Assembly: GCA_016860685.1 (NCBI GenBank)
Contig: BOJX01000001.1
Span: forward strand, 29,776 to 93,775
DNA: 64,000 bases
DNA from: Planctomycetota bacterium
GTDB lineage: Bacteria > Planctomycetota > Phycisphaerae > UBA1845
Reading direction: 5' to 3'
Part shown: positions 3,424 through 35,070 of the stretch, piece after piece
How the letters are laid out: every line of letters starts with the position of its first letter
Numbering within the stretch: the stretch's first letter is position 1
Notes under the pieces: generated by a model
The model's input: the letters and a program-made list of their open reading frames with translations, nothing else
What the model was told of the DNA's origin: nothing
Databases searched by the model: none
Made by a program: the position numbers and the translations under genes

Positions 3424-3525
3424 GATGCTCCCTTCCCCCCGTCGTCCACACTGCTCCCGGTCTCCCGGCGGGCGGGGTCGGCGACGTCGCGCCTTCGGCG
3501 CGGAAGACGCCGAGACCGCGAGGCA

Positions 3526-3555
3526 TTGTAATAAAATCGACGCTGCGGGTAAAAT
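3526..3555 (+). promoter_or_regulatory. candidate sigma70-type promoter (TTGTAA-N18-TAAAAT) for the 3680 gene
   Basis: AT-rich patch in a GC-rich divergent intergenic region. -35-like hexamer at 3526-3531 and -10-like hexamer at 3550-3555. Confidence 0.3.
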
Positions 3556-3679
3556 CCGGCCGACAACACGGCGTCCGTAAAGCCGGGAGGCCGCTCCGAC
3601 TCCGAGTCCTGCGATCTGACGCCCTCATATGCGGCGTTCCGGTTTGACCGGCCGCGCCGACGTTGCATATTCTCCCGAC

Positions 3680-5224: not shown

Positions 5225-6727
5225 ATGTCTGATGTTCCGCTTCGCGTCCGTTTCGCGCCGTCGCCGACGGGATATCTTCACGTCGGCGGCGCGCGGACCG
5301 TCCTTTTCAATTTCCTCCTGGCGCGCCGCCACGGCGGAACCTTCATCCTGCGCATCGAAGACACGGACCAGGACCGCCACGTCGAGGACTCGGTGGCGAA
5401 GATTCTCGACGACCTGCGCTGGCTCGGCATGAACTGGGACGAAGGACCGGAGAAGGGCGGCGACTTCGGGCCGTATTTTCAGAGCGCGTGCCTCGACGAG
5501 TACCGGGCCTGTGCCGCGCGCCTGCTCCAGTCCGGACAGGCGTATTACGCACTGGAGACCCCGGAGGAGCTGGACGCGATGCGCGAGCGCGCCCGCGCCG
5601 AGAAGCGGTCGTTCAAGTACCTGCGCCCGGACCCGCCACCGACCGTGGCGCAGGGCGAGGCCGCGAAGGCGGCGGGGCGCCCCGTCGTCATCCGCCTCAA
5701 GATGACCGGTGAGCCGATCACCGTGCATGACGAGGTGCTCGGCGATGTGACGATGCCCGCTGAGGAACTCGAGGACTTCGTCATCGTCAAGAGCGACGGC
5801 TGGCCGACGTACCACTTCGCCTGCGTCGTGGACGACGAACGCATGCGCGTCTCGCACGTCATCCGCGCGCAGGAGCATCTGATGAACACGCCGAAGCACA
5901 TCGCCCTCCAGCGGGCGCTGGGCTTCCGCACCCCGCGCTACGCCCACCTGCCGATCATCTTCAACCTCGACGGCACGAAGATGAGCAAACGCGACAAGGA
6001 GAGGGCGATCCGTGAAGGCCGCAAACCGCCGGAGATCGAGGTGCATGATTTCCGCGTGTCCGGGTATCTCCCCGAGGCGCTGATCAATTTCCTGGCGCTG
6101 CTCGGCTGGTCCAGCGGCGACGATCAGGAGCGGTTCACGCTCGACGAACTCGTGCAGCGGTTTTCGCTGGAGCGCGTCGGAAGGACTAACGCCCGCTTCG
6201 ACCGGGAGAAACTCGTCGCGTTTAACACGGAGTGGTGCGCGCGGGTCGGCCCGGCGCGCCTGCTGGAGGCGTTTAAGGACTTCCTCGCCGTCAATCAATC
6301 GCCGCTGTTGAAGTTCGACGAGGCGACGCTCACCCGCCTGCTTGCCGCGAAAAAGGGGCTGCGCACGTTCCGCGACGTCGAGGACTCCGCTCGGTTCCTG
6401 ATCATCAAGGACGACGAGGTCATATATGCCCCCGACGCCGTGCGGAAGGTGCTTGAGAAAAACGAGGGGGCGGGGTACGCGACGCTCGCCGCAATCCTGA
6501 CGGACCTGGATGCACAGACGGACTGGCGGCCCGAGGCTTTGCACGCCCTTCTTGAACGCACATGCGCCGCGCGAGGCCTGAAGATGGGCGACGTCGCCCA
6601 GCCGCTGCGCGTCGCAATCACCGGCACGACCGTCAGCCCGCCGATCCAGGACAGCCTCTCGCTGCTGGGGAAAGCCGCGACCTGCGCCCGCGTCCGGCGC
6701 TGCCTGTCCCAGCGAGCGCCGGGGTAA
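5225..6727 (+). CDS. gltX: glutamate--tRNA ligase
   Basis: RFAPSPTGYLHVGGARTVLFN (HIGH region), ILRIEDTD, and KMSKRD (KMSKS region). 500 aa. Confidence 0.93.
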   Translation: MSDVPLRVRFAPSPTGYLHVGGARTVLFNFLLARRHGGTFILRIEDTDQDRHVEDSVAKILDDLRWLGMNWDEGPEKGGDFGPYFQSACLDEYRACAARLLQSGQAYYALETPEELDAMRERARAEKRSFKYLRPDPPPTVAQGEAAKAAGRPVVIRLKMTGEPITVHDEVLGDVTMPAEELEDFVIVKSDGWPTYHFACVVDDERMRVSHVIRAQEHLMNTPKHIALQRALGFRTPRYAHLPIIFNLDGTKMSKRDKERAIREGRKPPEIEVHDFRVSGYLPEALINFLALLGWSSGDDQERFTLDELVQRFSLERVGRTNARFDREKLVAFNTEWCARVGPARLLEAFKDFLAVNQSPLLKFDEATLTRLLAAKKGLRTFRDVEDSARFLIIKDDEVIYAPDAVRKVLEKNEGAGYATLAAILTDLDAQTDWRPEALHALLERTCAARGLKMGDVAQPLRVAITGTTVSPPIQDSLSLLGKAATCARVRRCLSQRAPG

Positions 6728-6772
6728 CCCCCCCGCGTGCCGCCGCGTCCCCGCGAGCCGCCTCGGTCGCCG

Positions 6773-7567
6773 TCATGCGCTCGCCGCGCGGACCGTGTTG
6801 CGCAGCACGCCGATGCCGTCGATCTCGACCTCGATCGTATCTCCCGGTTTCAGAAACACGGGAGGTTTCCTGGCGAACCCGACCCCCTCAGGCGTGCCGC
6901 TCAGGATCAACGTGCCCGGCAGCAGCGTGAACTGGTGAGACACGTAGCTGACCAGCTTTGCACAACCGTGAATCATGTCGCGCGTGTTCGAGTCCTGCAT
7001 GACCGCGCCGTTAAGCCGGCTGCGGATCGGGCACACCGCCGCGTCCAACTCGTCCCGCGTGACGATCCAGGGTCCGAGGGGGCAGAACGTGTCGAAGCCC
7101 TTCGCGCGGGCCCACTGCTTGTCGTTGCGCTGGCAGTCGCGGGCGGACACGTCGTTGGCGCAGGTGTAACCGAAAACGCAGTTCAGCGCCTCCGCTTCAG
7201 AAACGTCCTTCGCTCGTCGCCCGATAACGATCGCCAGCTCCGCCTCGAAATCCACCTCGCTCGGCGCTGGCGCGGGCAGAACAATCTCGCCGCCCGGATC
7301 GAGCACCGACGTCGTCGCCTTCATGAAGATCAGCGGCGCCTCGGGAACCTGCGAGCCCGTCTCCTTCGCATGTGCGGCGTAGTTGCGCCCGATCGCGAAG
7401 ATGTTCGGCGGGACGACCGGCGCGAGCCACCGCGCAACGTTCACACGGCGCGGTACGATCGTAGGCGCGCCGAAGACATCGCCGTCGATCGGTTCGGCGG
7501 CGCCTTCGTCAATGACGCGCCCTGAAAGCACGCGCCCATCCCGCGTCAGAAACCGTGCAATGCGCAT
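6773..7567 (-). CDS. fumarylacetoacetate hydrolase (FAH) family protein
   Basis: ATG 7567 gives MRIARFLTRDGRVLSG... FAH-fold motifs: IFAIGRNYAAHAKE, EAELAIVIG, GYTCANDVSARD, GTPEGVG. Confidence 0.85.
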   Translation of the reverse strand: MRIARFLTRDGRVLSGRVIDEGAAEPIDGDVFGAPTIVPRRVNVARWLAPVVPPNIFAIGRNYAAHAKETGSQVPEAPLIFMKATTSVLDPGGEIVLPAPAPSEVDFEAELAIVIGRRAKDVSEAEALNCVFGYTCANDVSARDCQRNDKQWARAKGFDTFCPLGPWIVTRDELDAAVCPIRSRLNGAVMQDSNTRDMIHGCAKLVSYVSHQFTLLPGTLILSGTPEGVGFARKPPVFLKPGDTIEVEIDGIGVLRNTVRAASA

Positions 7568-7667
7568 CTGCGCATGATAGACCCTGCCCCCGTCGCCGTC
7601 ACGCGGTATCCCGATGCACATACTTAACCGCGTGCCTCGCGGGGGTGCGCGTTCAGTGCGATCGCCG

Positions 7668-8693
7668 CTACATCCGCGCCACGCGGGCTGCGAGATCCAC
7701 CGTGCGTGAGGAGTAGCCCCACTCATTGTCGTACCAGCCGACGACTTTGATGAGCGTGCCTCCTTTGCCGGGCATCGTCATCGTGCTTTCCGCATCGATG
7801 ATGCAGCTCGCCGGGTTGCCGATGATGTCGCTGCTGACGACCGGGTCCGTGCAATACTCGAGGATGCCCTTCATCTTACCCTCGGACGCAGCCTTCAGCG
7901 CCGCGTTGATCGCCTCCTTCGTCGCACTTTTCTGAAGCGTGGCGACAAGATCCACGATCGACCCGTCCGGCACCGGCACGCGCAGGGAGAAGCCGTTGAG
8001 CTTCCCGTCGAGGGCGGGGAGCACCTTCCCGACCGCTTTCGCGGCGCCGGTCGTCGTCGGAATGATGTTCTGCGCGGCGGCGCGGGCGCGGCGCAGATCC
8101 TTATGCACGAGGTCGGAGACGCGCTGGTCGTTCGTGTAAGCGTGGACGGTCGTCATCAGCCCCTCGACCAGACCGAACGTCTCGTGAATCACTTTCGCCA
8201 TCGGCGCGAGGCAGTTCGTCGTGCAACTCGCGTTCGAGATGCACAGGTGGCTGCCCTTGAGCTGGTCATCGTTGACCCCGAGGACGACGGTGATGTCCGG
8301 GTCGTCGCTGGCGGGCGCGGAGAGGATCACCTTTTTCGCCCCGGCCTTGAGGTGATCGCCGTAACCGCCCTTTTCCGACGAACGCTTTGTGAAAACGCCG
8401 GTGGATTCGATGCAGACGTCTATGCCGAGTTCCTTCCAGGGAAGTTTCGACGGATCCTTCTCCGCCAGCACCCGGACCGGTTTGCCCTCCACGACGATCG
8501 CTCCGTCCCTCGCCTCGACGTGCTTTTCGAAGCGGCCGTGGACGGAGTCGTACTTCAGCAGGTGTGCGAGGGAGGGCACGTCGGTCAGATCGTTGACGGC
8601 GACAACCTCGAAATCGGACGCCCGCTGCGACATGATACGAAACACGATCTTGCCGATCCTGCCGAGCCCGTTGATCGCCACCCGAACCGCCAT
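7668..8693 (-). CDS. gap: type I glyceraldehyde-3-phosphate dehydrogenase
   Basis: ATG 8693 preceded by AAGGAG. Motifs [15 protein letters not shown] and [12 protein letters not shown] (active-site Cys), with WYDNEWGYS near the C-terminus. Confidence 0.95.
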
Positions 8694-9274: not shown

Positions 9275-9369
9275 ATGCCTGACAAACAAAGGGGGTGCGC
9301 CTCCCTCCGGGAGGCGAATATCATCAGAAAAACCGGCATCACAAAGACCGATAGTTCTTCAACGAGCTG
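9275..9369 (-). repeat. structured ~95-bp repeat, copy A (31 nt downstream of the metallophosphoesterase stop)
   Basis: Aligns with 37675-37772 and 13236-13321. Contains a GC hairpin at 9298-9316, then GAAAAACCGGCATCACAAAGACCGAT and TTCAACGAGCTG. Confidence 0.7.
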
Positions 9370-9400
9370 TTAGGATCCGCGCAGGCAAATCTCGCCGAGA

Positions 9401-11020
9401 TTACTCCACTCGGATGATCCGCCGCCCGGTGTGCGTCAGGCCGAACATGTCCGTCGCCCGAACCTCGATGACGTGCGTTCCTTTTGAAGGAGCGCTCGGC
9501 AACGTCGCCGTCCACAGATGCGGCGTGCGCGTCGGCTTCGGCAGCTTGTTCTCCGGCGGCGGCTGCACCTTTGCTTCGGCCGCGACCGCTTCAACGAACG
9601 TCGGGTCCATCGCGGTCGTCGGCGTCATGTCCACCCAGGCCCCGTCGCCGACGCGCATCTGCACGCGCGTTTTCTCATTGCCCGCGAAAACGTTGGCCGT
9701 CACGAGCGTCTTGCCCGCGTCCGCGGCGGCCACGACCTCGGGGGCGTGGATGCTCATCTGATGATCGGCTGGACGGCGCGCCGCGCGGAACTCGATCGTG
9801 TATTGCGCGGCGTCAAACGTGATGAGGTTGTGCCCGTTGGGCGCGCCGTCGGACATCGTCGCGTGCGGGATACCGTTCTCATCCTTCAACCCTCCCCACC
9901 AGCTTCCGCAGACCGTCGCGCAGATGACGTGATGATGCGGCTCGGGGCGCGTCCACCCCTCCTTGTCGGTGAAGAACACGTGCTCCTGAAAATGCGCATG
10001 CGCCGAGAGCGACAGGGTGTAAGGAAAGCGCGCCAGCTCCGCGAAGATCGCCGCGGTCTCCTTCGTCTCCCGCAGCGGAATGTGCATCATCAGCACGACC
10101 AGATGCTCCGGCGTCACCAGCTTCAGGTCGTTCACCAACCACTGCATCTGGCGTTCGCCCAGCCCGCTGACGTAGTGCGCGTCCTGGTCCGCCGTCTTCG
10201 CAATCCAGACCACGTTGTCCAGTACGACGAAGTGAACCCTGCCCACGTCGAACGAGTAATACGGCGGTCCGTAAACGCGCTCGAACGTCTCATCCGAGTG
10301 CCGGTCGTCCGCCGCGTCGAAGTTCATGTCGTGATTGCCCAGCACGTTGTACCACGGGATGCCGATCTTCCCGACCGTGGCGTTCAGACTTCCGAAAAGC
10401 GAAAGATCATCGAAGACAACATCCCCCAGCGTGACCCCCAGCAGCGCCGGCGATCCGATCAGCGGTTCGATCACGTCGTGCGCCATGTAATCTATCTCGC
10501 GCTGATTGCGCGGCTGGGTGTCGCCGAAGATCAACACCTGAAACTTCGACGCTTCCGGGCGACGGTAGAGTGGAAAATCCACGGATGCCGGCAGAGGCCC
10601 CGTCGGCGCCACGCCCGCGTATTTCAGCGGCGGAGAACCGGCGGGCTTGTGAATGTAGTGGAACTTCGGCAGCTTGTGCTCGTCCACCGGGGTCATCCAG
10701 TCCGCCGGCTTCACGACAAAAAGGATCGTGTCGTCCCCGACCGGAAGTTCGTACGCTCCGTCCGACCGCGTGTACACGAGGTCCAGCCCGTTGCTGACGC
10801 GCACTGCGGGAATTCCCGGCTCGCCCTCGTCGCGCTTGCCGTTCCGGTTGAGGTCTTCGAACACGAACCCCCGCACCTGCCCGGTAGGCGCCGCTGCGGC
10901 TTGTGCCGGGCGTGGCTCATCGTGCCCCTCATGTCCTGCGGCAGCGCCGACGCCTCCCCAGATCGCCAGCGCCGCCGCCGCTCGCCCGCCCCACGCCCGC
11001 CCGATCCTCCTGCTCAACAT
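9401..11020 (-). CDS. secreted calcineurin-like metallophosphoesterase
   Basis: Signal-like N-terminus. Motifs FGDTQ, LGDVVFDD, GNHD and a later HHH region, with additional N- and C-terminal domains. 539 aa. Confidence 0.8.
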   Translation of the reverse strand: MLSRRIGRAWGGRAAAALAIWGGVGAAAGHEGHDEPRPAQAAAAPTGQVRGFVFEDLNRNGKRDEGEPGIPAVRVSNGLDLVYTRSDGAYELPVGDDTILFVVKPADWMTPVDEHKLPKFHYIHKPAGSPPLKYAGVAPTGPLPASVDFPLYRRPEASKFQVLIFGDTQPRNQREIDYMAHDVIEPLIGSPALLGVTLGDVVFDDLSLFGSLNATVGKIGIPWYNVLGNHDMNFDAADDRHSDETFERVYGPPYYSFDVGRVHFVVLDNVVWIAKTADQDAHYVSGLGERQMQWLVNDLKLVTPEHLVVLMMHIPLRETKETAAIFAELARFPYTLSLSAHAHFQEHVFFTDKEGWTRPEPHHHVICATVCGSWWGGLKDENGIPHATMSDGAPNGHNLITFDAAQYTIEFRAARRPADHQMSIHAPEVVAAADAGKTLVTANVFAGNEKTRVQMRVGDGAWVDMTPTTAMDPTFVEAVAAEAKVQPPPENKLPKPTRTPHLWTATLPSAPSKGTHVIEVRATDMFGLTHTGRRIIRVE

Positions 11021-11299
11021 TGCGATCCTCCGCTGATGATGGCCCGCTCCCCGTCTCCCCAGCGACTGAGATTCCGCCGGCCCGGGGCTTCACCTCCGCG
11101 CAGTCTAATTCACCAGCAGCCGCGTGTCTTGCGATCGTATTAAGAAAGCCTCGTGAATTCGCGCAACCTGAGCGCCGCGGAAGCGCTCCTCGCGCAGACG
11201 CTTCCCGGCAACGTGGCGTCGGCGTAATCTAACGTCGCGGTCCGGGAGCGCATCGGCGTCTTCCGGCGTCGCTTATGCCGGGTTCTGAGGGCAGGTCAC

Positions 11300-12997
11300 A
11301 TGAAGACGATGAGGACAATCCTTGCGGTGGCGATTCTGACGAGTTCTTTTCACGGCGCGGCGGCGCAGACGGAGACGCCCGCAATGCCCCCGGAGCAGGA
11401 GGCCAAGGTTTTGATCAAAGCGTACACAACTCGGTATCAGCCGGTGCTGATCGAGGCCAACCGCGCCTGGTGGGAGGCCAGCACCACCGGCTCCAACGAA
11501 GCCTTCGACCGCAAAAAAAAGGCCGACAAGGCGCTCGTCGCCCTGCACAGCGACACGTACCTCGCGGATCGGGTCAACGCGATCCTCAAGAGCGGCGCCG
11601 TGACCGACCCCGTGGAACGCCGGCAGCTTGAAGTCATGCGCCTTCACCTCCTGGCCGCCCACGCCGATCCGGACCTGCAAAACCGCATCGTCGATCTTCA
11701 GTCGGACATCGAGCAAACCTTCAATACCCACCGCAGCGACGTCGGCGGCAAGCTCCTCACCGAGAACGAAGTCCGCGCGATCCTCGCCGAAACGACGGAC
11801 TCGAAGCAGGCGGAGGCGGCGTGGAAGGGATACATGCAGGTCGGGCGCAAAGCCGACGGAAAGCTGCGCGAACTGGTCGCCCTGCGCAACGAACTGGCCC
11901 GCCAGCTCGGCTATCCGGACTTTCACGCGTACAAACTCGCCTCGCAGGAGATCGAGGCCGAGCCTTTCTTCGCCCTTTTTGACGAACTGGACCGCTTGAC
12001 CGCCGCGCCTTTCGCCGAAATCAAGGCCCGCATCGACGCGGCGCGGGCGAAAAAATTCGGCGTCGCGGAATCGGACCTCAGACCGTGGCACTTCGGCGAC
12101 CTCTTCTTTCAGGAGGCGCCGGAAGTCGAAGGCGTGGATCTCGACGCCGTCTACCGCGACGTGGACCTCGTCGCCCTCACCAAGCATTACTATCAGAGCC
12201 TCGGGTTCGACTGCGAGGACATCTTCGCCCGCAGCGACCTCCTCGAAAAAGAGGGCAAAAGCCCGCACGCTTTCGCCACCGATATCGACCGTGAAGGCGA
12301 CATCCGCGTCCTCTGCAACATCAAGCCCAACCTGTACTGGGCCGACACCACGATGCACGAGATCGGACACGCCGTCTACGACAAGTACATTGACCGCACT
12401 CTGCCCTTCACCCTGCGCGAGGCCTCGCACAGCATCACCACCGAAGGCGTCGCGATGATGTTCGGCGCGATCGTCAAGAACGCGGATTTCCTCGCCCGCG
12501 TCCGCAAGCTCAAAGCGGACGAAGCGGCGGCTGCGGGCAAGGCGGCGGCCGACGCCCTTCGGATGGAGAAACTCATGTTCGCCCGCTGGACCCAGGTGAT
12601 GGTGCGGTTCGAACACGGATTGTACACCCAGCCGGATCAGGATCTCGGCAAACTCTGGTGGGATCTCAAGAGGCGCTACCAGCTTCTGAACCCGCCCGAA
12701 TCCACCGACCGCCCGGACTACGCCGCGAAGGTGCATATCCTCACCGAGCCGGTGTATTACCACAGCTACCTGATGGGCGACCTCTTCGCCGCCCAGGTCC
12801 GCAACACGATCGCTCGTCGCGTCCTCGGGCAGGCGTCGCCGGGCGAAACAAGTTTTTTCGGTGAGACGAAAGCCGGCGACTACCTCCGGCGGGAGGTCTT
12901 CGGCCCCGGCAACCTTTACTCGTGGAACGAACTGACGAAACGCGCCACCGGCGAACCGCTCACCGCGAAGTATTTTGCTGAGCAGTTCGTACGTTGA
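11300..12997 (+). CDS. secreted M2-family (angiotensin-converting-enzyme-like) zinc metallopeptidase
   Basis: Signal peptide MKTMRTILAVAILTSSFHGAAA. TMHEIGHAVY...LPFTLREASHSITTEG is an HEXXH motif plus a downstream Glu, spaced as in ACE (HEMGH...LPVALREGANPGFHEA). The N-terminal ANRAWWEASTTG resembles the ACE ASWxYNTN region. Confidence 0.72.
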   Translation: MKTMRTILAVAILTSSFHGAAAQTETPAMPPEQEAKVLIKAYTTRYQPVLIEANRAWWEASTTGSNEAFDRKKKADKALVALHSDTYLADRVNAILKSGAVTDPVERRQLEVMRLHLLAAHADPDLQNRIVDLQSDIEQTFNTHRSDVGGKLLTENEVRAILAETTDSKQAEAAWKGYMQVGRKADGKLRELVALRNELARQLGYPDFHAYKLASQEIEAEPFFALFDELDRLTAAPFAEIKARIDAARAKKFGVAESDLRPWHFGDLFFQEAPEVEGVDLDAVYRDVDLVALTKHYYQSLGFDCEDIFARSDLLEKEGKSPHAFATDIDREGDIRVLCNIKPNLYWADTTMHEIGHAVYDKYIDRTLPFTLREASHSITTEGVAMMFGAIVKNADFLARVRKLKADEAAAAGKAAADALRMEKLMFARWTQVMVRFEHGLYTQPDQDLGKLWWDLKRRYQLLNPPESTDRPDYAAKVHILTEPVYYHSYLMGDLFAAQVRNTIARRVLGQASPGETSFFGETKAGDYLRREVFGPGNLYSWNELTKRATGEPLTAKYFAEQFVR

Positions 12998-14776: not shown

Positions 14777-15039
14777 AGCCCTGAAGGGATTACCGGATCA
14801 CCCGGATCGACGCAAACGGGACGGTTTCCGCCTCCTGCGGGGCCGTAACGGGCATCCCCGCCGCATACGCCTTGAATAAAAACCGATGGCTCCGGGGACG
14901 ATCGCCACGTGCGGCGCGGTATCATAAGCGGCGCGTACCCTGCACCCCCGCCGAGCGTAGGGATATCGAGGCCGCCGGTTTCCGGAGTCGAACGGACAAC
15001 CGACCGCAAAACGGCGTCACCGCCAGAAGGCCACGAACG

Positions 15040-15594
15040 ATGAAAGCACCGTACCGAGTTCACTTGCCGGACCAGGATCGCAGGGGGAGGATGCCGGCGC
15101 TCGCCGTCCTGACCGTCGCCGCGCTCGGGACCGTCGTCCGCGCCGACGAATGCCTCGTGTGATCAGCGCGAGCGGTGTTCACGCGCGAGGACCACGCGAT
15201 GGCGTATGACGAAGCCCGCGATACGCTTCAGTATTTTGGCGGAAAAGGGTACAATTTCCACACCGATCGACTCTCATGGTGGGAGCGCCGGGTGGACACC
15301 GATTGCGATGGGTACGTCGACGGCGACGATCCGTGTGAGGGGATCGGCGAGGTGCGCACGACTTGTCGGAACGGGGGCGGCCGCGGCGTGATCAAGGCGT
15401 CGGCCGTCGTCCACCTCGCCGCGGGAACCCCCGTCACTTTCGCGATGGATGAGGACGACCTGCGCATGATCCTGGTGGAGGGGCCCGGTCGGCGCCTTCG
15501 CGCGAAGTGGCGCAACGTGGACGCGGGTCCGCACGAGGTCTGCATCCTCCAATGCCGCGGTTTGCAGCGCTGCTCGGCGACGGATTGCGAGTGA
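15040..15594 (+). pseudogene. secreted Cys-rich protein interrupted by an in-frame TGA (15163-15165)
   Basis: ORFs 14872..15162 and 15175..15594 are in the same frame. Read-through gives a signal peptide MPALAVLTVAALGTVVRADECLV, then the stop, then SARAVFTREDHAMAYDEARDTLQYFGG... TGA is one substitution away from TGG (Trp). Confidence 0.55.
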
Positions 15595-15724
15595 GACGCC
15601 CGGAATCCGACCAGAAGGATTCGGATCCGAACAGGGTTCATGCTCGTTCAACGCGCGTCAGGGGCGAAGCCCCGTTCAACCTCCGCCGGGTTCAGAGGGT
15701 TCGCATTCCTCGAGTTTGAAAAGC

Positions 15725-15764
15725 CGCGCGGGCCTGCGATCCGTCATGATCGCAGGCCCGCGCG
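15725..15764. terminator. bidirectional hairpin terminator between convergent genes
   Basis: Perfect 17-bp stem, CGCGCGGGCCTGCGATC (15725-15741) with GATCGCAGGCCCGCGCG (15748-15764), and a 6-nt loop. Flanked by GAAAAG on the left and TTTCGG on the right. Confidence 0.6.
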
Positions 15765-15823
15765 TTTCGGATTCTCAGCCGATCACCCGGTCAGGGGCGA
15801 ACCGAGTTTGCCCGGTTGTCGCG

Positions 15824-17905
15824 TCAGGGCTGCGGACCGCAGGTGATGCTCGCCTCCACGCCGCACTCGACGAGATCGACGAAGTGCCGCCCGTTCGGAA
15901 TGCGGAAGAACTTCACCTTCGCCCGGCCGTTGTCCTTCACGACGCGCGGGAAGTCCGTCATCGGGTTGTCGTCGAGACGGAACGTGACCGTTGTCCCCGG
16001 ACGCCCGTTGAACAGCTTCGACACCACGGTGATTGAGTTGTCCAGGTGCAGCTTGCAGCCCATCTGGAGGAACTCCAGACCGGTGCAGTCGCCGCCGCTT
16101 TCGCAGGCATCGCCCACGCCGTTCTCGTCTGAGTCCTCCTGACCGGGGTTCGGGACGTCCGGACAATTGTCCACACAATCCGCGACGCCGTCGCCGTCCG
16201 TGTCATCGTCGCTGACGCCGCAGCCGCACGCGCCTTCCTCGGTCTTGTTCGGATCGTCCGGACAGCCGTCGTTGCAGTCGGGCGTCCCGTCGCCGTCCGT
16301 GTCATCATCGCTGACGCCGCAGCCGCACGCGCCTTCCTCGGTCTTGTTCGGATCGTCCGGACAGCCGTCGTTGCAGTCCGGCGTCCCGTCGCCGTCCGTG
16401 TCATCGTCGCTGACGCCGCAGCCGCACGCGCCTTCCTCGGTCTTGTTCGGATCGTCCGGACAGCCGTCGTTGCAGTCGGGCGTGCCGTCGCCGTCCGTGT
16501 CATCATCGCTGACGCCGCAGCCGCACGCGCCTTCCTCGGTCTTGTTCGGATCGTCCGGGCAGCCGTCGTTGCAGTCCGGCGTCCCGTCGCCGTCCGTGTC
16601 CTCATCGCTGACGCCGCAGCCGCACGCGCCTTCCTCGGTCTTGTTCGGATCGTCCGGGCAGCCGTCGTTGCAGTCCGGCGTCCCGTCGCCGTCCGTGTCA
16701 TCATCGCTGACGCCGCAGCCGCACGCGCCTTCCTCGGTCTTGTTCGGATCGTCCGGGCAGCCGTCGTTGCAGTCGGGCGTGCCGTCGCCGTCCGTGTCAT
16801 CATCGCTGACGCCGCAGCCGCACGCGCCTTCCTCGGTCTTGTTCGGATCGTCCGGACAGCCGTCGTTGCAGTCCGGCGTCCCGTCGCCGTCCGTGTCATC
16901 GTCGCTGACGCCGCAGCCGCACGCGCCTTCCTCGGTCTTGTTCGGATCGTCCGGGCAGCCGTCGCAGGCGTCGCCCGCGCCGTCGCCGTCCCGGTCCGAC
17001 TGATCCTTATTGCTCACGTCCGGGCAATTGTCGACGTCGCCGCAGACGCCGTCGCCATCCGCGTCGTTATCCGGATCGTCGGGGCATGCGTCGCAGTCAT
17101 CGATGATCCCGTCGTCATCCCGGTCGCCTTCGATGAAGTCCGACACGCAGTCGCCGTCGCAATCCACGATCGAGTAGTTGAGGTTGCCGGGATTCAGCGT
17201 CGGTGGCGAATTCACGCCGATCGTCTGCCAACCGAACATCTGGAGCGTGTCCCAGTTGTAGGGACCGGGCGACGTGCCCGTAACGACGCCGCCGGCCCAG
17301 AGCAGGGCGTTGGACCCGCAGCGGATGCGGTGCAAGGCGTCCGGCGTGTACGACTCGAAGCGCCCCAGCGCCGTGCCGCCGAGATCGTCGGCGTACTCAT
17401 GTTCGTCGTCCGGAGTCCCGTCGAACTCCTTGTAGCTGACGGCGTCCACCGTGGTGAAATCCGGGAGCGGTCCGTCCAACGTGCCGTCGTTCCCGGCGTC
17501 AAGATCCTGTCCGACGGTGAACGTACCGCCGAAACCGAGCACATACGTGTTCGTGCCGTTTTCGATGTCGGGGTTGAAGTCGAAGATGACGACGTTCGTG
17601 TCCGGGTCCGGCGGCGGCTGGAGCACTGTGCCCGAGTCGCGGATGAGCAGGAGGCCGTTGGCGCCCGTCGAGTACGAGCTGAGATTGAGCGCGACATCGA
17701 TGACGCCGCCGCCGGTCCCGTCGCCCTCAATGACCAGGAACCACCAGCCGCTGAAATTGAAGTTCGGCGCCGCCTGAATCTCGACGAACTCCTGTCCGTT
17801 GTCGGTTGAGGGCGGATCCAGGAGCAACTCGCTTAGGAATCCCTGCCCCAACGCCTGACCCGCCAGCGCGCAAAGCGCCAGTGCTACCCACGCACGTTTC
17901 CGCAT
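15824..17905 (-). CDS. secreted surface protein: lamin-tail-like domain + thrombospondin type-3-like Ca-binding repeats + Cys-framed C-terminal domain
   Basis: ATG 17905 gives the signal peptide MRKRAWVALALCALAGQALG. FLSELLLDPPSTDNGQEFVEI... is LTD-like. Eight copies of the 33-aa unit DGCPDDPNKTEEGACGCGVSDDDTDGDGTPDCN follow, rich in DxDxDG motifs. Confidence 0.8.
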   Translation of the reverse strand: MRKRAWVALALCALAGQALGQGFLSELLLDPPSTDNGQEFVEIQAAPNFNFSGWWFLVIEGDGTGGGVIDVALNLSSYSTGANGLLLIRDSGTVLQPPPDPDTNVVIFDFNPDIENGTNTYVLGFGGTFTVGQDLDAGNDGTLDGPLPDFTTVDAVSYKEFDGTPDDEHEYADDLGGTALGRFESYTPDALHRIRCGSNALLWAGGVVTGTSPGPYNWDTLQMFGWQTIGVNSPPTLNPGNLNYSIVDCDGDCVSDFIEGDRDDDGIIDDCDACPDDPDNDADGDGVCGDVDNCPDVSNKDQSDRDGDGAGDACDGCPDDPNKTEEGACGCGVSDDDTDGDGTPDCNDGCPDDPNKTEEGACGCGVSDDDTDGDGTPDCNDGCPDDPNKTEEGACGCGVSDDDTDGDGTPDCNDGCPDDPNKTEEGACGCGVSDEDTDGDGTPDCNDGCPDDPNKTEEGACGCGVSDDDTDGDGTPDCNDGCPDDPNKTEEGACGCGVSDDDTDGDGTPDCNDGCPDDPNKTEEGACGCGVSDDDTDGDGTPDCNDGCPDDPNKTEEGACGCGVSDDDTDGDGVADCVDNCPDVPNPGQEDSDENGVGDACESGGDCTGLEFLQMGCKLHLDNSITVVSKLFNGRPGTTVTFRLDDNPMTDFPRVVKDNGRAKVKFFRIPNGRHFVDLVECGVEASITCGPQP
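16202..16993. repeat. 8 tandem copies of a 99-bp in-frame repeat
   Basis: Units start at 16202, 16301, 16400, 16499, 16598, 16697, 16796 and 16895. They are near-identical with a few mostly synonymous differences, and the last unit diverges in its final third. Confidence 0.95.
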
Positions 17906-18195
17906 TGATAACCCCCTCGATTGAACTGCCGCGCGCCCCGGAGCGTGACGATCACGCGCCCGCCTGAGTTTGTCCCCTTGCTGTCGTTGGGGCGTAAACC
18001 TCAGGCGCGAAAGCTGACGGAAGATTAACGGTTGACGAAAGCGGCGCAAAGATCGACCGCGTTTCCCCTCCGCCGGCGGCATACGGAATCAAATTAATGT
18101 TTTTTCATGCTCGCAGCGGCTACCCTTCCTTCGAGTTTATCAAGGGGGCGCCGTGGGGTAGCCTCTTTGCAAGCATCGTTGCGAGAGCAGGTTGG

Positions 18196-18609
18196 ATGAA
18201 AGGGATTTCGCAATTCTGGATTCGAACCGCCGCGATCAACGGCCTGCTGGCGGTCGCCGCGGGAGCCTTCGGCGCACACGCCTTGAAGACACGCCTTGCC
18301 GCCGATCGCCTCGAGGTTTTCGAGACCGCCGCGCGATACCAGATGTATCACGCCCTGGCGCTGCTCGGCGTGGCGCGGGTCGCGGCGCGAGCGCCGTCGC
18401 ATTGGGCGACGGCCAGCGGGACGGCGTTCCTCGTCGGCACGGCGATCTTCAGCGGGAGTCTTTACGTATATGCGCTGGGCGGCGGGCGAGTGTTTGCGAT
18501 GGTGACGCCGGTCGGCGGTGCGGCGTTGCTGGCGGGGTGGGCGTTGCTCTGGCCCGCCGCGAGGAAACCGGATCGCGCCGGACTTACCCCAGGCGACTCC
18601 GACGACTGA
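18196..18609 (+). CDS. DUF423-family small membrane protein
   Basis: ATG 18196 gives MKGISQFWIRTAAINGLLAVAAGAFGAHAL...YQMYHALALL...GSLY, four predicted TM helices with the pattern typical of DUF423 (YgdD-like) proteins. Confidence 0.7.
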   Translation: MKGISQFWIRTAAINGLLAVAAGAFGAHALKTRLAADRLEVFETAARYQMYHALALLGVARVAARAPSHWATASGTAFLVGTAIFSGSLYVYALGGGRVFAMVTPVGGAALLAGWALLWPAARKPDRAGLTPGDSDD

Positions 18610-18658
18610 CGCGGCTCGTCGCGGAAGTTCACGCCGTGCAGTACGCTGCGCCGACGAC

Positions 18659-20311
18659 ATGAGTACCACATCAGAGGGATACGACGCCTCATCACCCGCG
18701 ACGTCTTCGATCCACAAGGCCGGGGACGGCGGAACCGACGACGCGCGGATATCGACCGCTTCTTCTGACGCTCCCGTCGCAGAGAGCGCCGCCGCTCCGG
18801 GGACGGCGCGCCGGTCGAGCTTCCTCATCCTCCTCTTAAGCCCGCTGACGCTGCTGGCGGCGCCGCGCTGGACCGCCTCCCGTCTTGCGGGGGAGCGGCT
18901 GGGGCGGATGTATGCGTGGCACGTCGTCATGTCGGGCCTGATCCTTCTGGCGAGCTTTTTTTTTACGAGCACCTTTGACGGAAACTGGAATCGTGGGACG
19001 GGGCCGTGGCAGACGTTCAACCAGGAGCTTGAGGATCTGATCCCGGTCCGGGGTCTGTCCGCCGGGGAGATCGGATTCATCACGCTGGTCCTGGGGGAGT
19101 GGGAACTCGGACTGATCGTCGCCGCCCTGATCATCATGCCGTGGGGGGCGGTTCAAGAACGACTTACGTCGAGCTTCCGTCACGCCCTTCGCACGATCTA
19201 CCTGTTCCTGCCGGCGCCTGTCGTATTGCTCGTCCTGCTGGGGCTGCTCGGGTACTGGATCGATGCGGCCGTCGCCGCGCGCCTGTTCGAGTTCAAGCGT
19301 GTCCCACCGGAAGCGCCGCCGATGCCGGCGAGCATCCTGGGCACGCCCGGCACGGAAGCGGAGTGGGCGGAATTCAAGACGAAGGCCGATGTCTACCAAC
19401 GTGAGATGCAGGCGCACTACGCCGAGCACCAGGCCGCGTGGGAGGCGCACTACGCATCGCTTCCTCTGCCGGTGCGGTATCCCGATGAAGCCCGGGCGAC
19501 GCTGGTGTTTCTGGCGATTGCGTTCGGCGTCCGAGCGTTGCTCGCTTGCGCCGGAGTCGCTCGCCCGCCGTCCGCGCCGCCGCGCGCCCCGACCTGCGAG
19601 TTCTGCGGGTACAACCTGACGCACCTGGTCGAGCCGCGCTGCCCGGAATGCGGCGAATCCGCGGAGCGGGCCTTGGGGCGCTGTTTTCACGCCGGGTCGC
19701 CGTGGGAGCGACGACAAACCCTGGGCCGCATCGCGGCGTACCTCGACACGGCGATTCTGGCGCTGACGGCCCCGCGCGAGCTGGGACGTCAGGTGCGAGG
19801 CGCGTCGCCTTCGCCGCAGTGGCGGTCCTTCGTCGGCGTGAGCTTGCTGCTGACTTTTGCGGTGACCGTGCTGGGATTCATCTTCGCGATCCTCGTGGGC
19901 GCCGACGGCGATCCGTTCCGGGAGGACCGTCCGGAGATGGTCGCGGTCCTGATCTGCTTCGGCATCGGCTGCACCCTTGTCGGTCTTGCGGAATTGCTGA
20001 TCGCGGCGCTGCTGATCGGCTTGCTCGCGGGGTGGCAGACGCGACGCAACCTGCTTCCCGCGGCGATGCAGATGGCTGGGTATCAGTCGGGCTACCTGGT
20101 GTTGTGGGCGGCGGCGGGGGCGTTGTGGTCCACGGCGATCGTCAGGGATCTGGACCGCGGCTCGTTCTTTCAGACCGCAAGTCATTCTCTGGGTCAGGGC
20201 CGCTTCGTTCTCGGCATGTTGACCTGGTGGTTCCTGAATCTCCTCGTCGTCCTCGCTCAATTGACGCTGCTGTGGCGCGGCACGCGCGTCGCGCAGCATG
20301 CGAACCGGTAG
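18659..20311 (+). CDS. polytopic membrane protein with internal zinc-ribbon
   Basis: ATG 18659 (MSTTSEGYD...). Multiple hydrophobic helices and CEFCGYNLTHLVEPRCPECG. The antisense ORF 18836..20587 is Arg-rich junk. Confidence 0.65.
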   Translation: MSTTSEGYDASSPATSSIHKAGDGGTDDARISTASSDAPVAESAAAPGTARRSSFLILLLSPLTLLAAPRWTASRLAGERLGRMYAWHVVMSGLILLASFFFTSTFDGNWNRGTGPWQTFNQELEDLIPVRGLSAGEIGFITLVLGEWELGLIVAALIIMPWGAVQERLTSSFRHALRTIYLFLPAPVVLLVLLGLLGYWIDAAVAARLFEFKRVPPEAPPMPASILGTPGTEAEWAEFKTKADVYQREMQAHYAEHQAAWEAHYASLPLPVRYPDEARATLVFLAIAFGVRALLACAGVARPPSAPPRAPTCEFCGYNLTHLVEPRCPECGESAERALGRCFHAGSPWERRQTLGRIAAYLDTAILALTAPRELGRQVRGASPSPQWRSFVGVSLLLTFAVTVLGFIFAILVGADGDPFREDRPEMVAVLICFGIGCTLVGLAELLIAALLIGLLAGWQTRRNLLPAAMQMAGYQSGYLVLWAAAGALWSTAIVRDLDRGSFFQTASHSLGQGRFVLGMLTWWFLNLLVVLAQLTLLWRGTRVAQHANR

Positions 20312-34539: not shown

Positions 34540-35070
34540 ATGTTTCATCATAAGATCGTAACGAAGAATGGCGCTTGGACGGCGATCGCGGGGATCGTCG
34601 TCGTGAGCGCGGGGATGGGGGTTTCCCGCGCGACCGGACCGGAGCCGACGCCGACGATGGTGATGGCGACGGAGGTGACGAGGATGATGACGCCGATGAC
34701 GGGGGCGACGGGGGCCGAGCCGATGCCGATGACGATGCCGATGGCGATGCTCGCGCCGTTCACGTGGACGGGCGGCGGCAGCGACCCGGATTACTGGAAC
34801 GAGACGGCGAACTGGTCCGGGGCGGGCGTGGGCTATCCGGATGACAGCTCGGACGACGCGACGTTTTCCGGCAGTTTTGGCTTCGCCGACTTGGACGCCA
34901 GCCGCACGATTGACGACCTCACCGTGGATGACGGCAGCGGGTCGTACTTCCAATCCGACGGTGAGAACAGCCGGACGCTGACCTGCGACACCGTGGTCAT
35001 CAGCGAAGACACAAGCGGCGATTTCGGCGGCGTTCACGTTACCGGACTGGCCGGCATTGAAACCAACTGA
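34540..35070 (+). CDS. secreted hypothetical protein with Met-rich segment
   Basis: N-terminal hydrophobic segment AWTAIAGIVVVSAGMG. 11 Met in residues 40-70 (TMVMATEVTRMMTPMTGATGAEPMPMTMPMAM). Then FTWTGGGSDPDYWNETANWSG. Confidence 0.65.
   Translation: MFHHKIVTKNGAWTAIAGIVVVSAGMGVSRATGPEPTPTMVMATEVTRMMTPMTGATGAEPMPMTMPMAMLAPFTWTGGGSDPDYWNETANWSGAGVGYPDDSSDDATFSGSFGFADLDASRTIDDLTVDDGSGSYFQSDGENSRTLTCDTVVISEDTSGDFGGVHVTGLAGIETN

Follow-up and report, generated by a model that had tools for sequence, protein, structure and literature searches.

A gene on the minus strand of a 64,000-nucleotide (nt) stretch of contig BOJX01000001.1 from an uncultured Phycisphaerae bacterium (hereafter the window) contains a tandem array of 99-bp units, which encode eight 33-residue bacterial modules resembling the type 3 repeats of thrombospondin (TSP3). 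This array evolves in concert: its units are uniform within a genome and different between genomes. In the encoded protein, the modules stand between an N-terminal head and a C-terminal domain. Our reading of this locus, to which we assign a probability of roughly 0.6, is that the array is the coding sequence of TSP3-like modules, that it evolves in concert and changes length by whole modules, and that the module chain would serve as a Ca2+- and disulfide-stabilized spacer between the head and the C-terminal domain.

Results and Discussion

Tandem Repeats Finder detected a single array at positions 16188–16964 with a period of 99, 7.8 copies, 97% matches, no indels, and a score of 1463. In the coding register of the minus strand, repeat finding and translation place eight in-frame units (DGCPDDPNKTEEGACGCGVSDDDTDGDGTPDCN) of 99 bp and 33 amino acids (aa) each at positions 16172–16963. 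Since the base composition predicts a chance match of 0.28 per base, 97% identity over 8 × 99 nt is far above chance. The diverged unit is the last one in the coding direction (16172–16270), with 11 mismatches and its divergence in the final 15 nt. The other seven units vary at five positions only (9, 63, 66, 84, and 90). Four of these five sites are synonymous and one changes Asp to Glu in unit 4; at the protein level units 1–7 agree at 32–33 of 33 residues. Exact repeats within the array extend to 173 bp; duplicated k-mers occur at lengths up to k = 151 and are absent at k = 200.

The five biallelic sites combine into seven mosaic haplotypes. Two pairs of sites (9/63 and 9/84) present all four allele combinations and hence fail the four-gamete test. 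Such mosaics require either exchange between units or recurrent mutation.

An earlier note on this DNA had placed the array at 16202–16993 without naming its strand. That array is real and is the one described here, offset in register by 30 nt. The note had counted eight near-identical units, which in its register is true of seven (1–3 mismatches to the consensus); the eighth (16895–16993) has 12 mismatches because this register overruns into the preceding canonical TSP3 repeat. The variant strings that the note cited occur in the window array, and its description of the differences as mostly synonymous with one Asp-to-Glu change agrees with the five-site count. Two other candidates were rejected. 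The plus-strand open reading frame (ORF) at 16167–17003 is a mirror frame of the repeat without homology, whereas the minus-strand frame links conserved N- and C-terminal domains. A second TSP3-like match in the window (34647–34799) belongs to a low-complexity ORF and not to a related gene.

Identity of the Encoded Modules

The whole protein matches the Pfam family TSP_3 (PF02412) with 56.3 bits against a cutoff of 25, distributed over nine stretches. Three array units alone reach 17.4 bits (E = 0.0035) and fall under this cutoff; the canonical model does not include the CGCG half of the unit. Each unit contains a Cys-framed acidic loop of the DxDxDGxxDxxD type followed by CP, reading ...SDDDTDGDGTPDCNDGCPDD...; one module comprises one DxDxDGDGxxDC loop and four cysteines (C-x11-CGC-x14-C). 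Sequence matches in the PDB include COMP (3fby, E = 4.6e-30), TSP-2 (2rhp and 1yo8), TSP-1 (1ux6), and the TT3R repeats of a bacterial OmpA-family protein (5wtl). Among solved structures, the last of these matches the array units themselves best (E = 1.2e-7). The TSP3 label proposed in the earlier note is thus borne out by a Pfam score above the cutoff and by alignment with the repeats of COMP and TSP-2. We conclude that the array encodes eight 33-residue bacterial TSP3-like modules; by homology to solved Ca2+-bound structures, these modules would be expected to bind Ca2+.

A first AlphaFold2 (AF2) model of the full-length protein, computed with an alignment of the head family only, gave repeats with a predicted local distance difference test score (pLDDT) below 50. 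A second run with an alignment of 136 rows that covers the repeats and the C-terminal domain returned units with pLDDT values of 93–98 and no helices or strands (predicted TM score, 0.59). The absence of regular secondary structure is expected for a TSP3 "wire" that is organized by Ca2+.

Searches with three units and with the full protein revealed that the CGCG-type unit is widespread. They recovered hundreds to thousands of proteins from Phycisphaerae, Myxococcota, Bdellovibrionota, and Bacteroidota and even from diatoms, in which the unit often stands immediately before a sorting signal at the C-terminus (MYXO-CTERM or IPTL-CTERM, for example). More than 2000 proteins share this unit type, and their other domains are very diverse. 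A literature search on bacterial TT3R/TSP3 returned only unrelated thyroid-index papers.

Uniform Units within Genomes, Different Units between Genomes

One scan of species-representative genomes yielded two close relatives of the window, the Phycisphaerae metagenome-assembled genome (MAG) MAG_25 (L005) and Bin_14R (L006); the aa identity is 97% in the head for L005 and 94% for L006. The array of L005 contains five units. That of L006 contains at least seven and is broken by runs of N of 100 and 10 nt. Each of the three genomes has its own unit type. Units of the window read ...EEGAC...DDDT...TPDCN. The inner units of L005 contain DDDA, and its terminal unit has retained the Thr at position 24 that is found in the window. 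In L006 every unit, the terminal one included, reads EEGVC...DDDS...TADCN. The lineages are thus marked by T, A, or S at position 24 and by A or V at position 14.

Nucleotide distances describe the same pattern. Within arrays the distance is 0.023 in the window, 0.031 in L005, and 0.008 in L006. Between these three genomes the unit distance is 0.056–0.070 when the first 84 nt of all units are compared, and 0.055–0.099 when the full 99 nt are compared with the terminal unit left out. The flanking N-terminal coding part differs between genomes by 0.066–0.122, similar to the divergence of the units. A more distant orthologue (P0194, locus L026; 66% identity, 693 aa) has its own array of 6.6 copies with 89% DNA identity; its units are about 25% distant from those of the window and 13% from one another. 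For all 26 units tested, the nearest neighbor is a unit from the same genome. Grouping by genome in this way is the hallmark of concerted evolution.

The earlier note had suggested recent or ongoing homogenization, and the comparison of relatives supports this suggestion: units are uniform in each genome (0.8–3.1%) and separated by fixed lineage-specific differences between genomes (5.5–10%). The case that would have spoken for a stable array, namely relatives with an equal number of diverged units, was also looked for; the relatives do not show it. Since three lineages that are 6–12% diverged each have their own homogenized unit type, turnover within the array since these lineages split is certain. 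We take the array state itself to be old, because arrays occur in all four lineages examined, including the 66%-identical orthologue with its 13%-diverged units; by the same sequence comparison the unit sequence appears to have been homogenized repeatedly.

A different history would dispense with ongoing conversion: each lineage might lately and independently have amplified one ancestral unit, and the arrays would be young. The very low divergence within arrays (0.8–3%) fits such a history, as does the L005 array, where Thr at position 24 of the terminal unit next to Ala in the inner units would follow from amplification of one inner unit. This account has more difficulty with the presence of arrays in all four lineages, the most diverged orthologue among them, with the L006-specific changes that extend into the terminal unit, and with the mosaic haplotypes of the window, which demand exchange or recurrent mutation. 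We therefore consider independent recent amplification to be quite improbable, and regard the locus, which belongs to an uncultured Phycisphaerae from the environment, as a clean and unusually clear case of concerted evolution.

Array Length in Public Assemblies

The 90%-identity cluster of the window protein contains complete proteins with 2, 3, 4, 5, and 8 units, which measure 495, 528, 561, 594, and 693 aa and follow steps of 33 aa. Six further members are partial proteins. Five of them are cut off inside the array, and the sixth, the product of a Logan contig, turns into unrelated sequence just before the array. In one partial protein the H-type unit occurs three times, compared to twice in the five-unit version.

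Six assemblies of the L005 type allow a closer comparison. They list five units (L005, JABWBH01), four units (L027, BTUH01; L028, JAPKGZ01), three units (L029, JAKLKN01; L030, JABTTX01), and two units (L031, RHKN01). On both sides, 1500 bp of flanking sequence agree at 100%, and in the non-repeat parts of the gene (942 + 348 bp) L031 alone departs from the others, by two substitutions. Relative to the five-unit array, the shorter ones have lost sequence in register, and chimeric units mark the joints: with a-b-c-d-t standing for five units, they read a-b-c-t, a-b/d-t, a-c-t, and a/N-t. Versions with two to four units are built wholly of k-mers of the five-unit version (k ≤ 61–82). Array length is hence not reproducible between assemblies of near-identical genomes. 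Contigs also tend to stop here. Logan contigs with an identical seryl-tRNA synthetase end at window positions ~16177–16217, within 46 nt of the array edge, and a JGI/WGS contig ends 104 nt into the array. Sequencing runs in which this strain is present include DRR335824, DRR258782, DRR258783, and SRR30047705. 

These observations invite the explanation that the array is stable in vivo, that the differing unit numbers are artifacts of short-read metagenome assembly (graph collapse or mis-traversal), and that homogeneity is maintained by slow and rare conversion. Much speaks for it. Six assemblies with identical flanks differ in unit number, which is much length change with no point change; each shorter version is composed of k-mers of the five-unit version; the two three-unit assemblies have different middle units, as alternative paths through a graph predict; and contigs end at the array or, as in L006, carry runs of N in it. 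The partial protein with the additional H-type unit suggests that even five may be an undercount. On the other hand, unequal recombination predicts identical products, and in fact both real unequal recombination and collapse of a de Bruijn graph yield exactly the length products observed. The five-unit version was recovered in two assemblies, in one of them on a 720-kb contig, and a three-unit version lies on a 1.2-Mb contig. Three lineages with 6–12% divergence, each with its own homogenized unit type, also argue against an inert array. We regard a stable array misread by assemblers as a serious possibility, although not as the probable one.

The earlier note had described the locus as prone to copy-number change and to assembly collapse. 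The second part of this description stands, with 2, 3, 4, 5, or 8 units in near-identical assemblies and contigs that break or are gapped at the array; for the first part, true variation is not separable from collapse. The locus is in any case a documented assembly hazard, as public MAGs of apparently one strain list two, three, four, or five modules. Because module counts vary and contigs break or are gapped at this site, long reads are needed before protein length, the clustering of orthologues, or any strain typing by this gene can be relied upon. A phase-variable contingency locus of the frameshift type was considered and rejected: the period of 99 is 3 × 33, and every observed length variant is in frame.

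Architecture of the Repeat Protein

The coding sequence of the repeat protein spans positions 15824–17905 of the minus strand (693 aa plus stop, from the ORF list) and starts with MRKRAW. The frame stays open upstream of this Met as far as 18082 (15824–18082); annotated orthologues share the MRKRAW start. GIK15066.1 (BroJett003_00300), from a Planctomycetota MAG, has a sequence identical to this translation, and an exact look-up of the 693-aa and 752-aa forms of the window protein returned no encoding contig. The protein is predicted to be secreted by the Sec pathway. Direct reading of the sequence by eye identified a putative signal peptide (MRKRAWVALALCALAGQALG, 17846–17905) with a basic n-region, a hydrophobic core, and a cleavage motif ALG|QG. 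This peptide is conserved in orthologues, and AF2 models residues 2–18 as helical. It is followed by a β-rich head (approximately residues 21–247, 17165–17845), delimited by homologues, AF2, and Foldseek. An Asp/Cys-rich linker of canonical TSP3 repeats (residues 248–314, 16964–17164), recognized by Pfam TSP_3 and by alignment with COMP and TSP-2, leads into the array. Downstream of the array, the same alignment locates a single canonical TSP3 repeat (DNCPDVPNPGQEDSDENGVGDAC, 16103–16171), which is also the best Pfam TSP_3 stretch. The protein ends in a 92-aa domain with four invariant cysteines and an Ig-like β-sandwich fold (15827–16102), as defined by family alignment, AF2, and Foldseek.

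The head is the most conserved and the family-defining part of the protein. Its family (~230 aa) includes 72 homologues with up to 51% identity from Planctomycetota and other phyla, and the C-termini of these homologues vary (PEP-CTERM, type IX secretion system (T9SS), dockerin, GC-dockerin). AF2 models the head with pLDDT values above 90. The top four Foldseek matches in the PDB are Ig-folds of lamin B1 and lamin A/C, with probabilities of 0.84–0.99, and of 0.97–0.99 for the best of them; these matches are weak (E ~1e-2, TM score ~0.5, root-mean-square deviation ~5.5 Å over ~110 of ~230 residues). The head alone matched no Pfam family at E ≤ 10, lamin tail domain PF00932 included, and when the head-family alignment was used as a profile against the PDB, only chance matches came up, none of them to lamin. 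The "lamin-tail" designation used in the earlier note therefore survives as a weak likeness at the level of the fold, without a match to the family. On the basis of the model it is plausible as a fold label and not an established membership.

The C-terminal domain was described in the earlier note as Cys-framed, in agreement with the family alignment, in which C6, C16, C80, and C88 are invariant. A search at E ≤ 1e-3 found 63 representative clusters, nearly all of them matched at the C-terminal end and more than 50 at the extreme C-terminus. The family (~85 aa; proteins P0193–P0255) shares the motif TFRLD...GKAKxKF...G.H.V...EC and corresponds to no Pfam or NCBIfam model. AF2 predicts a seven-strand sandwich (pLDDT ~85–93), for which Foldseek returned generic Ig-like folds; matches to Big_3_5 and Big_1 are weak. 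Other proteins that end in this domain carry heads such as EEP nuclease/phosphatase domains, β-helix/PMP repeats, or BNR/FG-GAP repeats. A cluster look-up of ten members of the family yielded no names. By analogy, the domain may function in sorting or anchoring and be specific to this lineage. As an undescribed family at the C-terminus of many secreted proteins of these bacteria, it is a lead in its own right.

The convergent neighbor of the repeat gene (15199–15594, plus strand, 131 aa) also ends in a domain of this four-Cys family (hhalign probability 97.3%, E = 1.7e-11). Upstream and in frame with it lies an ORF (14872–15162, plus strand) that encodes a signal-peptide-like sequence (MPALAVLTVAALGTVVRADECLV) and ends at a TGA codon (15160–15162), which is why the gene at 15199–15594 may be split or a pseudogene. 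The TGA stands in a CxxU-like context. Read-through with selenocysteine was rejected as an explanation, since the downstream RNA is no more stable than shuffled sequences (z = 0.25) and lacks the stability of a selenocysteine insertion sequence.

In the genome of the 66%-identical orthologue (L026, CAZGJA010000014.1), two genes 1.2 kb apart (6001–8082, 693 aa, and 9338–12985, 1215 aa) have different heads and end in one type of 99-bp unit followed by one type of C-terminal domain. The unit distance is 0.107 between the two genes and 0.135 within one gene. As the units are as similar between genes as within one gene, this pair suggests that a cassette of stalk and C-terminal domain was exchanged or duplicated between them.

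Genomic Surroundings

A promoter and terminator scan of 15500–18400 found nothing. Inspection of the sequence between the convergent genes nevertheless shows a GC-rich, perfect hairpin of 16 bp at 15726–15763, followed by GGCTTTTC on the minus strand; it stayed under the T-run threshold of the scan. This hairpin is the probable terminator of the repeat gene and possibly terminates in both directions. Upstream of the repeat gene, and divergent from it, a DUF423 membrane protein is encoded at 18097–18609 (plus strand), an arrangement that is kept in genomes of the L005 type. Beside it lies a 597-aa ORF (18518–20311, plus strand) with no Pfam match. Downstream, the window continues with the small ORF containing the C-terminal domain and then seryl-tRNA synthetase, whereas L005-type genomes have a gene of 383–399 aa. 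In L006, a 42-bp tandem repeat with 3.4 copies and 97% identity (3445–3587) is located ~2.4 kb upstream of the orthologous gene.

Proposed Mechanism and Function

Established knowledge on tandem repeats offers a plausible mechanism for the behavior of this array. RecA-dependent unequal exchange or replication slippage, acting on shared identity of tens to more than 100 bp, would add or remove whole 99-bp units, and short tracts of gene conversion would copy variants from unit to unit. Because the period equals 3 × 33, whole modules would be gained or lost in frame; because each unit contributes four cysteines and one acidic loop, each length variant would contain an even number of cysteines and complete Ca2+ sites. 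We infer that array length can change in this way while the reading frame, the even cysteine count, and the Ca2+ sites are spared. The module chain could then form a Ca2+-loaded, disulfide-stapled spacer without regular secondary structure, and the length of this spacer would determine how far the head lies from the C-terminal domain. The latter may, by analogy, be the sorting or attachment end, because homologues of the head carry sorting or anchor tags in this position.

Several points weigh against this interpretation. Short-read graph collapse could generate all versions with two to five units from the k-mers they share (k ≤ 61–82), and the count of eight in the window depends on reads and their pairing, where exact repeats of 173 bp exceed reads of 150 nt. 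In eukaryotic thrombospondins (PDB 1ux6, 1yo8) the type 3 repeats are wound about the lectin-like domain at the C-terminus and do not form a free rod, so that a role as spacer is not guaranteed. The repeat protein contains no lipobox and no known sorting signal or anchor. Finally, the spacer function, Ca2+ binding, disulfides, rod shape, and surface location are all predictions from the protein sequence.

The repeats might also be the working part of the protein: a multivalent polymer that binds Ca2+ or other cations or matrix, with the unit number setting its capacity or avidity. The acidic DxDxDGDG loop in every unit, the homology to Ca2+-binding repeats of TSP, COMP, and OmpA TT3R, and the presence of the unit type in over 2000 proteins whose other domains vary widely are compatible with this idea. 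Such a polymer would suit aggregation in biofilms or granules, and the MAG names AMXMBFR and BroJett, taken alone, suggest that the biomass probably came from an anammox reactor. The position of the unit points in the other direction. It usually comes immediately before a sorting signal or domain at the C-terminus (MYXO-CTERM, IPTL-CTERM, and the C-terminal domain of this protein), as a linker or stalk would, and it is the head that is most conserved and defines the family. For these reasons we consider a binding polymer unlikely and prefer the spacer.

A more far-reaching version of the spacer interpretation would join the 99-bp units and the four-Cys Ig-like domain into an exchangeable cassette of Phycisphaerae, an "adjustable stalk plus attachment". 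Conversion within and between genes would keep the units identical, stalk length could be retuned quickly, and the C-terminal domain would represent a new lineage-specific sorting or anchoring module, placed where homologues of the head carry PEP-CTERM, T9SS-CTD, or dockerin tails. We hold this idea to be speculative and rather doubtful.

Related Systems

The type 3 repeats of thrombospondin and COMP (PF02412; 3fby, 1yo8, 2rhp, 1ux6) share with the array units the Cys-framed DxDxDGxxDxxDxCP acidic loops and, according to the model, the lack of regular secondary structure. They differ in three respects. A PNKTEEGACGCG segment is inserted in the array unit, and the unit contains four cysteines; its copies are near-identical in DNA, whereas the repeats of COMP and TSP-2 differ among themselves in sequence; and no C-terminal lectin-like domain follows the repeats. 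The bacterial OmpA-family TT3R (5wtl) is similar in that it consists of tandem DTDGDGxPDxxDxCP units. The 5wtl unit has 27 aa and two cysteines (C...GC), compared to 33 aa and four cysteines (DC.D.C...CGCG) in the array, where the extra cysteines are in ...PDC.D... and in CGCG. Its partner is an OmpA domain, which Pfam did not find in the repeat protein; here the partners are a head resembling the lamin tail domain and an Ig-like C-terminal domain.

Among myxobacterial proteins, MtsC (NF047638), TraA, and CglD likewise have a CGCG-type unit upstream of a C-terminal sorting element, and MYXO-CTERM proteins were among the matches of the unit search. With 69.7 bits against a cutoff of 350, the window protein falls short of NF047638. 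Its C-terminus is Ig-like and not MYXO-CTERM, its head domain is different, and it comes from a different phylum. A literature search on MtsC returned context papers only.

The closest parallel is provided by the Periscope Proteins (SasG, Rib/alpha C, Sgo_0707, CdrA), surface proteins of variable length with repeats that are highly identical in DNA. Intragenic recombination has been proposed to alter their repeat number and hence the reach of a terminal functional domain; the screen in the paper on them required repeats of more than 50 residues, and TSP3 is not mentioned there (Whelan et al. 2021, PMC8201768). The repeat protein resembles them as a predicted secreted or surface protein with tandem repeats of 97% DNA identity. 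Unit numbers of 2–5 and 8 were read from closely related genomes, in assemblies that are open to collapse. Unlike Periscope Proteins, it has a unit of 33 aa, below the 50-residue threshold, and this unit would be a Ca2+/disulfide "wire" and not a globular domain. It contains neither LPXTG nor another known anchor, and it has a signal peptide and a conserved head family. Its host is an uncultured Phycisphaerae. To our knowledge, no Periscope Proteins have been described in this phylum. If the cassette described above were real, it would be a nonglobular, Ca2+-dependent counterpart of these proteins. As it stands, the repeat protein is a real and fairly ordinary variable-length repeat protein, akin to Periscope-like surface proteins. 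None of these results overturns current understanding; rather, they extend the idea of the variable-length surface protein to a small disulfide/Ca2+ module.

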